Under the pieces are notes generated by a model. It did no database searches. It worked only from the letters and a program-made list of their open reading frames with translations, and was not told the origin of the DNA. From a virus (lineage: Duplodnaviria; Heunggongvirae; Uroviricota; Caudoviricetes), in the IMG/VR virus record IMGVR_UViG_2627854098_000001: 44,371 bases of DNA; one strand, written 5' to 3'. Shown piece after piece: positions 1,273 through 41,484 of this stretch. Numbering within the stretch: position 1 is the first letter of the stretch; the number at the start of each line of letters is the position of its first letter. Made by a program: the position numbers and the translations under genes.

Positions 1273-1302
1273 GTAAGCGACTCGTCAGAACCGTATTGAT
1301 AT

Positions 1303-2873
1303 TTACTGAGAGCTCAGATCAACTTTCCAGGGCAACAGATCGCGTACCCGGTTTGCCGGCCAGTCCTGGATATGTTCAATGACGTAACGCAGCCACTTTT
1401 CTGGCTCCACATTGTTCAGACGGCATGTGCCGATCAGCGAGTACAACACCGCCGCATGTTCACCACCGCTGTCGGAACCCGCGAACATCCAGTTTTTCCG
1501 GCCTACGGCCACTCCCCGTAAGGCGTTCTCTGCGATGTTGTTGTCGATTTCCACCCAGCCATTACTGCAGTACACGTTCAGTGCATCCCACTGTTTCAGC
1601 AGGTATGCGAACGCTTTTGCCGTATCTGAGTGACGCGACAGTGTTTTCATCTGTTGCTGTATCCAGTCATACAGTGACTGCATCAGTGGCGCGGCTCTGG
1701 CTTTTCTTGCCGCCAGACGCTGTTCTGCTGAACAGCCCCGGACCTCTGCCTCGATGGCATACAGTTCACCGATACGCTGCAGGGCTTCCGTGGTGATGTA
1801 GGTGGGCGCTCTTGCATGCACATCGTGGATTTTTCTCCGGGCATGAGCCATACACGCGGCTTCCGTTATTCTGCCGGATTCGTATAACGCCCGGTAACCA
1901 CCGTAAGCATCGGCCTGAAGCACACCGCTGTAACCGGCCAGGTGATTTTGTGGATGGATACCTTTCCGGTCCGGACTGTACGCGAACCAGACCGCCGGGG
2001 GCATCTGTGAACCGGCGTTACGGTCATCACGGACGTAGACCCACAGCCGGGCTGTCCGGGTTTTACCGCTGCCCGGCTCCTGGACCGGGACGGGGATATC
2101 ATCAGCATGGACTTTACCGGGCATCAGCACATACTGGCGCAGGACGTCATACAGCGGCTCCAGCAGTTCAGCAACAGCACCTGTCCAGCGCCCCAGTGTG
2201 GCACGGCTCAGCTCCACTCCCTGACGACGGTATATTTCTGACTGGCGGTATAACGGCAGATGGTCTGCATATTTCCCGGTGACAACATGGGCCAGAAGCC
2301 CCGCTCCGGCATAACTGCGTGCAATGGGTTTTGAAGGTACTGGTGCCTGCACGATATGGTCGCACCGGCAACAGGCCTGTTTCGGACGTTGTGTTTCGAT
2401 AACCTTAAAGGCGCTGCTGATAAGCTCCAGTTGCTCTGACACATCACATCCCAGAGAACTGAGTTCACCACCACAGGCAGGACAGCATTCCTCTTCCGGC
2501 CGGATAACCCGGGTTTCACGGGGAAGTGAGGCCGGTAACGGTTTACGGGCTGAAGACTGGCGCAGGGCGGATGGCAGTACCGGGTCATATTGCTCACCCA
2601 GCGTTTCCGCCATTTCTTCTGAAGTGCGCTGATTCGCTCCTGTGCTTCCTGTATCTGCCGTTCGGTTTTTGCACGAAGTTTTTCTGAGCTTTTACCGAAC
2701 TGCATACGTTGCAGTTTCGCAACCAGCGCCTTCAGCCGGTTGATTTCGGAAGCATAAGCCGCCACCCGCTGTGAGAGCAGGCGGTTGTATTCAGCCATCT
2801 GGCGGATGGTGTCCTGTTGCGTCTGCAACAGTGCCCGCAGGCGGGCGTTCTCATGAGCAAGTGAGGTGTCCAT
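1303..2873 (-). pseudogene. tnpC: IS66 transposase TnpC, frameshifted (1-bp deletion near 2619 relative to copy B)
   Basis: Split into ORFs 2208-2873 and 1303-2613; copy B has the intact 523-aa ORF; copy A reads CTTCTGAAG where copy B reads CTTCCTGAAG. Confidence 0.85.
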
Positions 2874-2892
2874 ATCCTCACTTTACAACGGG

Positions 2893-3240
2893 TTATATGC
2901 GGATTCCAGCGCGTTCCGTTCGTTTCGGGTGCTTCCAGTTGATACCTTCAAGAAGCATGGATAACTGAGCCGGAGTAAGGTGCACCTTGCCGTCACGGGT
3001 GACTGGCCAGACGAAGCGGCCCCGCTCCAGGCGTTTGGTGAAGAGGCACAGTCCGTCACTGTCAGCCCACAACACTTTTATCTGGTCACCCCGGCGTCCG
3101 CAGAAGATGAACAGGTGTCCGGAGAACGGGTCATCCTTCAGGACGTTCTGAACTTTTGATGCCAGGCCGTTAAAGCCATTTCGCATATCGGTGATACCTG
3201 CAACCAGCCAGATACGCGAACCTGCAGGGAGAGATATCAT
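2893..3240 (-). CDS. tnpB: IS66 accessory protein TnpB (115 aa)
   Basis: Identical to copy B except one Cys/Arg substitution (FIFCGRR vs FIFRGRR); 1-nt ATGA overlap with tnpA. Confidence 0.85.
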   Translation of the reverse strand: MISLPAGSRIWLVAGITDMRNGFNGLASKVQNVLKDDPFSGHLFIFCGRRGDQIKVLWADSDGLCLFTKRLERGRFVWPVTRDGKVHLTPAQLSMLLEGINWKHPKRTERAGIRI

Positions 3241-3917
3241 CAGTGGCTGCTCCCTTTTATTTCGCGGATAAGTGTCTGTAATAACGCCGGCGTCAGTTTA
3301 CCTTTAAGCCTGAGAGTTCCGGCCGGCAGAACCAGCTCACAACACAGACTGTCGGACGGTGTATTTATCTGCTCTGGTTCCTGTGCGGGGGCCGGGATTT
3401 TATTATCCGGCTCCGGCGTTAACGTCACGGGAAGCAGTGCCGGCATATTTTTTCCGGAAGGCAGCAGGCCACCTTTCCGGTATTGATGGCGCCAGTTGAA
3501 GAGCAGGTTATCGTTGATTCCGTTTTCCCGGGCGATCTGCGCCACACAGGCTCCGGGCTGCAGTGACTGCTCCACTAAGGCGATTTTAAACTCATAAGGG
3601 AAGTTGGGCCGCCGGGGACGTTTTTTTACCACGGGGGCTTCGGATATAACGGTGCTTTCAGGACGTACGACTGGTACCGTGGAAAATTGTCCGTAAAGGC
3701 AGGCATCAAGTTCCTGCTCCGACATGCCTGCGGGCAAAGGCCACGAAAGGCCAGCTCTCCGAAAGCGCACGAACATACTACAAACTGTTGATTTTGGTAC
3801 ACCCAGGCGACGCCCGGCCACAACCCGGGGTAAATGTTCTTCAAAGTGAAGACGTAAAGCTTCAGTGATCCAGGTCCGGTGTTTCATACGATAGTGTCCA
3901 TTAAAAATGATGGACAT
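3240..3917 (-). CDS. tnpA: IS66 accessory protein TnpA (orf1), ORF as called 225 aa; true start may be internal
   Basis: Identical to copy B ORF; HTH-like N-terminal region; position within IS66 operon. Confidence 0.75.
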   Translation of the reverse strand: MSIIFNGHYRMKHRTWITEALRLHFEEHLPRVVAGRRLGVPKSTVCSMFVRFRRAGLSWPLPAGMSEQELDACLYGQFSTVPVVRPESTVISEAPVVKKRPRRPNFPYEFKIALVEQSLQPGACVAQIARENGINDNLLFNWRHQYRKGGLLPSGKNMPALLPVTLTPEPDNKIPAPAQEPEQINTPSDSLCCELVLPAGTLRLKGKLTPALLQTLIREIKGSSH

Positions 3918-39516: not shown

Positions 39517-39863
39517 TGATATCTCTCCCTGCAGGTTCGCGTATCTGGCTGGTTGCAGGTATCACCGATATGCGAAATGGCTTTAACGGCCTGGCATCAA
39601 AAGTTCAGAACGTCCTGAAGGATGACCCGTTCTCCGGACACCTGTTCATCTTCCGCGGACGCCGGGGTGACCAGATAAAAGTGTTGTGGGCTGACAGTGA
39701 CGGACTGTGCCTCTTCACCAAACGCCTGGAGCGGGGCCGCTTCGTCTGGCCAGTCACCCGTGACGGCAAGGTGCACCTTACTCCGGCTCAGTTATCCATG
39801 CTTCTTGAAGGTATCAACTGGAAGCACCCGAAACGAACGGAACGCGCTGGAATCCGCATATAA
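39516..39863 (+). CDS. tnpB: IS66 TnpB
   Basis: ATGA overlap with tnpA; conserved IS66 orf2. Confidence 0.85.
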   Translation: MISLPAGSRIWLVAGITDMRNGFNGLASKVQNVLKDDPFSGHLFIFRGRRGDQIKVLWADSDGLCLFTKRLERGRFVWPVTRDGKVHLTPAQLSMLLEGINWKHPKRTERAGIRI

Positions 39864-39882
39864 CCCGTTGTAAAGTGAGGAT

Positions 39883-41454
39883 ATGGACACCTCACTTGCT
39901 CATGAGAACGCCCGCCTGCGGGCACTGTTGCAGACGCAACAGGACACCATCCGCCAGATGGCTGAATACAACCGCCTGCTCTCACAGCGGGTGGCGGCTT
40001 ATGCTTCCGAAATCAACCGGCTGAAGGCGCTGGTTGCGAAACTGCAACGTATGCAGTTCGGTAAAAGCTCAGAAAAACTTCGTGCAAAAACCGAACGGCA
40101 GATACAGGAAGCACAGGAGCGAATCAGCGCACTTCAGGAAGAAATGGCGGAAACGCTGGGTGAGCAATATGACCCGGTACTGCCATCCGCCCTGCGCCAG
40201 TCTTCAGCCCGTAAACCGTTACCGGCCTCACTTCCCCGTGAAACCCGGGTTATCCGGCCGGAAGAGGAATGCTGTCCTGCCTGTGGTGGTGAACTCAGTT
40301 CTCTGGGATGTGATGTGTCAGAGCAACTGGAGCTTATCAGCAGCGCCTTTAAGGTTATCGAAACACAACGTCCGAAACAGGCCTGTTGCCGGTGCGACCA
40401 TATCGTGCAGGCACCAGTACCTTCAAAACCCATTGCACGCAGTTATGCCGGAGCGGGGCTTCTGGCCCATGTTGTCACCGGGAAATATGCAGACCATCTG
40501 CCGTTATACCGCCAGTCAGAAATATACCGTCGTCAGGGAGTGGAGCTGAGCCGTGCCACACTGGGGCGCTGGACAGGTGCTGTTGCTGAACTGCTGGAGC
40601 CGCTGTATGACGTCCTGCGCCAGTATGTGCTGATGCCCGGTAAAGTCCATGCTGATGATATCCCCGTCCCGGTCCAGGAGCCGGGCAGCGGTAAAACCCG
40701 GACAGCCCGGCTGTGGGTCTACGTCCGTGATGACCGTAACGCCGGTTCACAGATGCCCCCGGCGGTCTGGTTCGCGTACAGTCCGGACCGGAAAGGTATC
40801 CATCCACAAAATCACCTGGCCGGTTACAGCGGTGTGCTTCAGGCCGATGCTTACGGTGGTTACCGGGCGTTATACGAATCCGGCAGAATAACGGAAGCCG
40901 CGTGTATGGCTCATGCCCGGAGAAAAATCCACGATGTGCATGCAAGAGCGCCCACCTACATCACCACGGAAGCCCTGCAGCGTATCGGTGAACTGTATGC
41001 CATCGAGGCAGAGGTCCGGGGCTGTTCAGCAGAACAGCGTCTGGCGGCAAGAAAAGCCAGAGCCGCGCCACTGATGCAGTCACTGTATGACTGGATACAG
41101 CAACAGATGAAAACACTGTCGCGTCACTCAGATACGGCAAAAGCGTTCGCATACCTGCTGAAACAGTGGGATGCACTGAACGTGTACTGCAGTAATGGCT
41201 GGGTGGAAATCGACAACAACATCGCAGAGAACGCCTTACGGGGAGTGGCCGTAGGCCGGAAAAACTGGATGTTCGCGGGTTCCGACAGCGGTGGTGAACA
41301 TGCGGCGGTGTTGTACTCGCTGATCGGCACATGCCGTCTGAACAATGTGGAGCCAGAAAAGTGGCTGCGTTACGTCATTGAACATATCCAGGACTGGCCG
41401 GCAAACCGGGTACGCGATCTGTTGCCCTGGAAAGTTGATCTGAGCTCTCAGTAA
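39883..41454 (+). CDS. tnpC: IS66 transposase TnpC (intact, 523 aa)
   Basis: Full-length ORF with N-terminal coiled-coil/leucine zipper, CxxC zinc-finger and DDE-type region. Confidence 0.9.
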
Positions 41455-41484
41455 ATATCAATACGGTTCTGACGAGTCGCTTAC

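Follow-up and report, generated by a model that had tools for sequence, protein, structure and literature searches.

Invertible DNA segments of the Din family are recombined at crossover sites in which 12-bp imperfect half-sites surround a 2-bp core (AA/TT), and insertion sequences (IS) of the IS66 family have as their hallmark in ISfinder imperfect terminal inverted repeats beginning with GTAA. One IS66-family element, ISCro1, was first named in Citrobacter rodentium and is widespread in Escherichia coli chromosomes and plasmids. ISCro1 is a 2699-bp element that makes an 8-bp duplication of its target, and homologous recombination between plasmids mediated by this element has been reported (PMC12115866). 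It has also been located in the afa regulatory region of sequence type (ST) 131 (PMC8764528). Here, two inverted copies of ISCro1, designated A and B, are described in a single prophage within a stretch of 44,371 nucleotides (hereafter the window) from the Caudoviricetes record IMGVR_UViG_2627854098_000001. At 100% identity, the window matches the chromosome of avian pathogenic E. coli (APEC) strain IMT5155 (NZ_CP005930.1) from position 846052 down to 801682. This chromosome is published and its RefSeq annotation covers the window; the element and the genome are both already in the literature.

The reading favoured here, to which we assign a probability of about 0.85, combines two ancestral ISCro1 insertions, no fixed inversion between them, and sequence variants in copy A that are most likely consensus errors. 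ISCro1 would have transposed twice, independently, into the resident prophage of an ancestor common to IMT5155 and two other strains, DE17 and VTB96815v. One copy would have entered the catalytic domain of the prophage integrase with the usual 8-bp duplication, and the other a tail-fibre inversion switch, in the outer arm of its right crossover site, with an unusual 9-bp duplication that would have regenerated a full site on the inner side. The inverted pair would form a possible substrate for a RecA-mediated inversion of 34.8 kb, of which none has become fixed. The observations below show the identity and limits of the element, the target duplications, the empty sites, the collinearity and the restriction of the variants to one record; which insertion came first, when each took place, and whether copy A holds errors or mutations are what we infer from them.

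Identity and target sites of the two copies

The original prediction, made from the sequence of the window alone, had assigned the element to the IS66 family, and protein family models bear this out. TnpC of copy B matched PF03050 (DDE_Tnp_IS66) at 2.5e-103, together with PF13817, PF13007 and PF13005, and TnpC scored 477.9 bits against NCBIfam NF033517 (cut-off 180). TnpB matched PF05717 (TnpB_IS66) at 4.7e-40 as well as NF033819, and TnpA matched NF038385 at 295.8 bits. The Pfam models concerned (DDE_Tnp_IS66, zf-IS66, LZ_Tnp_IS66, TnpB_IS66 and HTH_Tnp_1), and likewise the NCBIfam equivalog models matched by the three proteins, were exceeded far above their cut-offs. The gene order in copy B is that of IS66, with tnpA and tnpB upstream of tnpC. 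RefSeq names both copies "IS66-like element ISCro1 family", the label of copy A being "IS66-like element ISCro1 family transposase, frameshifted". A similarity search was made with a 541-bp stretch that reaches across tnpB and tnpC of copy A and covers both positions at which the copies differ. The IS was found in 2,565 E. coli records (1,724 of them with a copy at least 99% identical over these 541 bp) and at 14 places in the IMT5155 chromosome. Because of its own two variants, this stretch is 99.6% identical to the RefSeq-annotated ISCro1 copies of other E. coli records. Its identification as the known ISCro1 is supported indirectly, by the RefSeq name, the length of 2699 bp and the 99.6% identity over 541 bp.

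The limits of the copies (Table 1) were set by MAFFT alignment with flanks, which supported the prediction of two near-identical inverted copies bracketing the prophage. The copies are separated by 34,815 bp and show exactly two internal differences, one deleted base and one substituted base. Repeat finding gave inverted arms at 1273-2619/40138-41484 and 2619-3990/38766-40137; the extension of the second arm to 3990/38766 does not belong to the element, its last 20 bases being a partial flank match only. The element starts with GTAACCGGCTC and ends with GAGTCGCTTAC, and its terminal inverted repeats, GTAACCGGCTCATTTAAACCG and GTAAGCGACTCGTCAGAACCG, are imperfect and start with GTAA. The head of the host prophage is of the HK97 type, its tail is contractile and its tail-fibre switch is e14-like. 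A third, divergent IS66-family element, here called IS#3, follows copy B on the right after a gap of 482 bp, is oriented like it and shows 72-76% identity to ISCro1.

Each copy was predicted to keep its own matched direct repeat, and this was confirmed both in the flanks and at the corresponding empty sites of strain IHE3034. These sites read ...GGTT TATCAACG CCAAC... and ...CGTTT ATGAAAATG CAGAAA..., with each sequence present once and exactly at the junction. Since each duplicated sequence is single in the IS-free IHE3034, the repeats are true target duplications and not chance matches. The same prophage without either ISCro1 copy, at nearly 100% identity, was found in ST95 relatives such as IHE3034, UTI89 and APEC O1, and a similarity search of complete E. 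coli genomes returned about 95 further genomes that hold the prophage without copy A. Among the 5,426 complete E. coli genomes of the comparison set, copies A and B were both present in three only: IMT5155 (Germany), DE17 (China, duck) and VTB96815v (South Africa, chicken). Every other genome with copy A at the integrase site, namely DE17 and VTB96815v, also has copy B, and copy B of IMT5155 is 100% identical to both ISCro1 copies in these two strains. Both empty sites occur in IS-free relatives, which indicates two independent simple insertions; judged from their flanks, A and B are two separate simple insertions, with duplications of 8 and 9 bp, respectively.

Two inverted copies of one IS flanking 34.8 kb could also be taken for a composite transposon that the copies form together with the intervening prophage, or as which all three have moved. 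This structure is ruled out by the unmatched outer flanks (TATCAACG vs. ATGAAAATG, each copy having its own duplication) and by the separate empty sites. In the relatives, this prophage occupies the identical locus and lacks both IS, and each IS breaks a prophage feature that is continuous in them. We give the composite transposon practically no chance.

The 9-bp repeat of copy B had been pointed out as a departure from the 8 bp usual for IS66, and it proved to be both real and unusual. The 8 bases abutting the two ends of copy B differ (TGAAAATG vs. ATGAAAAT), so the repeat is not an 8-bp duplication with one chance base added, and the 9-bp duplication is present in three independent assemblies (IMT5155, DE17 and VTB96815v). 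Duplication lengths were surveyed in viral and metagenome contigs, which were scanned with the right end of the IS, and in additional E. coli regions. The survey comprised 55 distinct full-length ISCro1 copies with both flanks, nearly all from viral or metagenome contigs. An 8-bp duplication was found at 34 of them and a 9-bp duplication at copy B alone, 15 had no matching flanks, and the remainder showed short matches only (2 bp at three copies, 1 bp at one and 6 bp at another). With the copies of two further related prophages, those of 1409 and VTB97448v (8 bp each), the count becomes 36 vs. 1, that is, 9 bp in one of 37 clean duplications. Recombination, or chimeric joins in the metagenome assemblies, may account for the 15 copies that lack such flanks. 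A scan of species-representative genomes for the right end of the IS found only two short contigs of metagenome-assembled genomes. One contig of 2699 bp (L008), in which the right end of the IS is the last base, is apparently the IS alone.

From these flanks and the survey, the 9-bp duplication is read as a genuine and rare one-base variation in cutting stagger. An 8-bp duplication plus one extra A at the right end of copy B would describe the same sequence in other terms. Duplication length is a tendency and not a strict criterion of IS66, with 8 bp at copy A, 8 bp at IS#3 and 9 bp at copy B. Copy B provides a clean, empty-site-verified example of ISCro1 occasionally making 9 bp instead of 8.

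Table 1. Positions of the ISCro1 copies, their target sites and associated features (window coordinates unless another record is named)
Feature	Position	Strand	Remarks
ISCro1 copy A, 2698 bp	1273-3970	-	In prophage integrase at about codon 283; ends GTAACCGG...CGCTTAC
tnpC of copy A, pseudogene as read	1303-2873	-	1-bp deletion at about 2619
tnpB of copy A, Cys47 (3102)	2893-3240	-	Arg in every other copy
tnpA of copy A	3240-3917	-	Protein families, RefSeq annotation
ISCro1 copy B, 2699 bp	38786-41484	+	tnpA 38839-39516, tnpB 39516-39863, tnpC 39883-41454, all intact
Target-site duplication of copy A, outer, TATCAACG, 8 bp	1265-1272		Single-copy in IHE3034 empty site, L003 7265-7272
Target-site duplication of copy A, inner, TATCAACG	3971-3978		Flank sequence
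Target-site duplication of copy B, inner, ATGAAAATG, 9 bp	38777-38785		Single-copy in IHE3034 empty site, L002 19776-19784
Target-site duplication of copy B, outer, ATGAAAATG	41485-41493		Flank sequence
Integrase, C-terminal fragment	947-1272	-	RefSeq: integrase, missing N-terminus
Integrase, N-terminal fragment, Arm DNA-binding part	3971-4826	-	Private 1-bp insertion at 4250 in IMT5155
One-base insertions private to IMT5155	4250; 5615; 13240; 36264		TTT for TT; T7 for T6; A7 for A6; T6 for T5
Left 26-bp invertase crossover site, CTCTCGAAAACC TT GGTTTGGGAGAA	36831-36856		Within tail-fibre gene; breakpoint of the 1.9-kb inversion in DE17 and VTB96815v
Right 26-bp invertase crossover site, TTCTCCCAAACC AA CGTTTATGAAAA	38758-38783		Outer 7 bp within copy B duplication
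Pin-type serine invertase remnant, 123 bp	41546-41668	+	Truncated equally in IS-free relatives
IS#3, divergent IS66-family element, 2442 bp	41967-44371, to 44408 beyond the window	+	Splits GmrSD type IV restriction gene
ISCro1 copies in three related prophages (1409, VTB97448v, ES5)	L204 17214-19912; L205 17640-20338; L006 18727-21425		Each at a different site, 8-bp duplication

Sequence variants of copy A

The deletion in copy A leaves a single G at about 2619 where copy B has GG at 40136-40137, and shifts tnpC after codon 85. The substitution is a T at 3102 in copy A for a C at 39654 in copy B, and gives Cys47 in TnpB of A and Arg47 in that of B. From these differences, copy A had been predicted to be decaying and copy B to be the only transposition-competent copy; neither statement is supported. 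The same insertion is intact in DE17 and VTB96815v, in which the copy in the integrase gene encodes, like copy B, the intact TnpC WP_000381395.1 and TnpB WP_000624622.1 and is 100% identical to it over 2699 bp; both variants are private to the IMT5155 record. With the 541-bp query, IMT5155 matched at 100% and every other record listed, from rank 2 on, at 99.6%, which corresponds to the canonical base at both positions; the variants of copy A were seen in no other listed record in the search of the 2,565 E. coli records that hold the IS. As to competence, copy A keeps both of its ends in a chromosome with ISCro1 at 14 places, so that the distinction of copy B as the only competent one has little meaning. 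Copy A could be mobilised in trans even if the tnpC frameshift were real.

Over window positions 1-36857, seven positions distinguish IMT5155 from DE17 and VTB96815v, and the two sister genomes agree at all of them. Six are one-base insertions or deletions (indels) and one is a substitution; two lie in copy A and five in the prophage, and the unique sequence of this region contains zero substitutions. Four of the five prophage indels are private to IMT5155 when it is compared with DE17, VTB96815v and IHE3034, and all four are insertions; the genes concerned bear a frameshift label for IMT5155 in RefSeq (the N-terminal part of the integrase, a hypothetical gene, a LexA-like gene and ymfQ). The other three genomes have intact versions of the integrase part, the LexA-like gene and ymfQ, and the fourth gene is flagged as frameshifted in DE17 and VTB96815v also. 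These four insertions in T or A runs are probably homopolymer errors of 454 pyrosequencing. A T-run at 18963 has seven bases (T7) in IMT5155 and IHE3034 and eight (T8) in DE17 and VTB96815v. This is the sole difference common to the sister genomes, and suggests a closer relationship between the two than of either to IMT5155.

The IMT5155 genome was sequenced by 454 pyrosequencing only, with about 100 Mb of shotgun reads assembled by Newbler into 121 contigs, and the gaps were closed by polymerase chain reaction (PCR) products that were sequenced directly by the Sanger method (PMC4232414). A 2.7-kb repeat present in 14 copies would have been such an assembly gap. Moreover, the zero substitutions in unique sequence make two real mutations within one 2.7-kb IS copy unlikely. 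On balance, we consider the frameshift and the Arg47Cys change in copy A to be probable consensus errors of a 454/Newbler assembly with repeat gaps filled by PCR and Sanger sequencing. Three points weigh against this assignment: the deletion lies in a 2-base run and not in a long homopolymer, and is therefore not a textbook 454 error; the substitution is not a typical 454 error either; and DE17 and VTB96815v are different isolates, so that real mutations private to IMT5155 retain some probability.

The first of these points also favours true decay in IMT5155, in which the two changes would be very recent, strain-private mutations that inactivate the copy. Both changes stand in the deposited sequence, and the divergent IS#3, with a TnpB of 71% identity, still has Arg47, so that replacement of this residue resembles a loss of constraint. 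However, two mutations in 2.7 kb are unexpectedly many beside the absence of substitutions from the unique sequence, the same copy is intact in both sister genomes, the variants recur in no other listed record, and four other private, gene-breaking one-base indels accompany them in this window of a 454-only assembly. True decay is for these reasons regarded as unlikely, while retaining a substantial minority of our confidence. Much further down the scale stands an ancestral copy A that was already defective and was repaired by gene conversion from another ISCro1 copy in the lineage of DE17 and VTB96815v. These two strains share T8 at 18963; a single conversion would suffice if they are a clade, as they may be, and donor copies would have been many, given the 14 places in IMT5155. 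Yet this history takes three events, against two or none for the private-change explanations, and the variants have left no trace elsewhere; we hold it to be highly improbable. Overall, a "decaying IS copy" described from a single genome can be an assembly artefact, and in the present case both the sister genomes and the pattern of 454 errors speak against decay.

Possible inversion between the copies, and the tail-fibre switch

The absence of a net A x B inversion since the insertions, deduced originally from the window alone, is supported by the matched duplications and by collinearity with the IS-free relatives as well as with DE17 and VTB96815v. DE17 and VTB96815v have both copies in the order and orientation seen in IMT5155, and the duplications are matched in all three strains. 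Swapped duplications, with one A-type and one B-type flank at each IS, were not found in IMT5155, DE17 or VTB96815v. In the genome comparison, an inversion isoform was expected as a row of about 95% coverage (the IS plus 3971-25000, without 1-1272). The rows observed had 100%, 100%, 100% and then 89% coverage, the last being the IS-free prophage. No isoform was seen among the 5,426 complete genomes, of which only three carry the substrate.

Some considerations count against too firm a conclusion from these data: consensus assemblies cannot reveal low-frequency inversion isoforms, an even number of inversions would leave no trace, and the absence of the isoform rests on the small sample of three two-copy genomes. 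Recombination of A with B might accordingly be inverting the prophage segment in a minority of the cells, or have inverted it an even number of times in the past, hidden in the consensus. The inverted sequences, 2.7 kb long and more than 99.9% identical, would be ample for RecA recombination, the plasmid recombination reported for ISCro1 offers a precedent (PMC12115866), and the right flank of IS#3 is swapped in VTB96815v, so that IS-mediated rearrangement does occur at this locus. Against this, none of the three two-copy genomes, from Germany, China and South Africa, is inverted, and no isoform row appeared in the wider comparison. Such hidden flipping is considered improbable, and a live A x B switch, with at least 1% of the cells of the IMT5155 lineage carrying the 34.8-kb inversion, clearly more so.

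Copy A lies at about codon 283 of a 390-amino-acid tyrosine integrase that is intact in IHE3034, inside the catalytic domain (Phage_integrase, residues 202-372), and the prophage integrase is thereby destroyed. This insertion shows how the prophage became fixed in the ST140 avian lineage.

Copy B lies in the tail-fibre switch, in the outer arm of its right crossover site. At either end of the 1.9-kb tail-fibre segment (36857-38757) stands a 26-bp site made up of imperfect 12-bp half-sites and a 2-bp core, and because the outer 7 bp of the right site were duplicated on insertion, a complete site survives on the inner side of copy B. Relative to IMT5155, the segment is reversed in DE17 and VTB96815v, with breakpoints inside both 26-bp sites. 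Its occurrence in both orientations among genomes with copy B indicates that it has flipped at least once since copy B inserted, presumably by an invertase encoded elsewhere. The serine invertase gene beside the segment is a remnant, and the related ES5 prophage has an intact 184-amino-acid pinE.

The 9-bp duplication may reflect an altered cutting stagger of the IS66 transpososome when its target, here an invertase crossover site, is bent DNA. This proposal, which is separate from that of a live A x B switch, is given the same very low standing. The crossover site was also considered as a hot spot for ISCro1, and this was rejected: the copies in ES5, 1409 and VTB97448v all occupy different sites with 8-bp duplications (CTTAAAAC, GTGAAACC and GAGGCATC). 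ISCro1 lies within the invertible tail-fibre segments of the 1409 and VTB97448v prophages, and downstream of the intact pinE in ES5. The apparent enrichment of ISCro1 at tail-fibre loci is at least partly a ranking artefact, since the IS itself adds query coverage.

Neighbouring features and comparison with described systems

IS#3 has GTAAGCG at both ends and an 8-bp duplication, AAGCAAAG. The GmrSD type IV methyl-directed restriction gene that it splits (region from 41770) is intact in IHE3034 and gives a full-length PADLOC mREase_IV match there. In VTB96815v (L005, about 46625 onward), the right flank of IS#3 is unrelated chromosome with an aldo/keto reductase gene and rclCBA, and the duplication is unmatched, which points to a large rearrangement mediated by IS#3. 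The swapped-flank signature that was sought for A x B was seen instead at this neighbouring element.

At the other end of the prophage, window positions 1-955 and the gene just upstream (L003 5085-5996) form a three-gene cluster between the integrase and glaH. One product weakly matches histidine-kinase-like ATPases, at a score below the Pfam cut-off; another is STAS-like (DUF4325); and for the third, of 205 amino acids, no family match was found. PADLOC gave zero hits on these three small genes beside the integrase. The cluster may be prophage-end cargo of unknown function.

The locus as a whole carries little biological weight, as IS-crippled prophages and unrecombined inverted IS pairs are routine in E. 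coli genomes. How, then, does it compare with the systems already described? Three comparisons can be drawn. 1) With ISCro1 itself, the elements share the 2699-bp length, the tnpA-tnpB-tnpC order, the IS66 DDE domains and the GTAA termini, and copy A has the 8-bp duplication; the differences are the 9-bp duplication of copy B, and the private frameshift and Arg47Cys change of copy A in the IMT5155 record. 2) With the IS-flanked inversions of E. coli, Shigella and Citrobacter rodentium, the locus shares the substrate, two near-identical inverted copies of 2.7 kb that lie 34.8 kb apart, but not the product, as the flanks are unswapped in IMT5155 and in both sister genomes. 3) With the Din-family segments (Mu G/Gin, P1 C/Cin and e14 P/Pin), it shares two 26-bp sites bounding a 1.9-kb segment, with opposed tail-fibre C-terminal parts and tail-fibre assembly genes, beside a serine recombinase gene; unlike in those systems, the recombinase gene here is a 123-bp remnant, parted from the segment by copy B.

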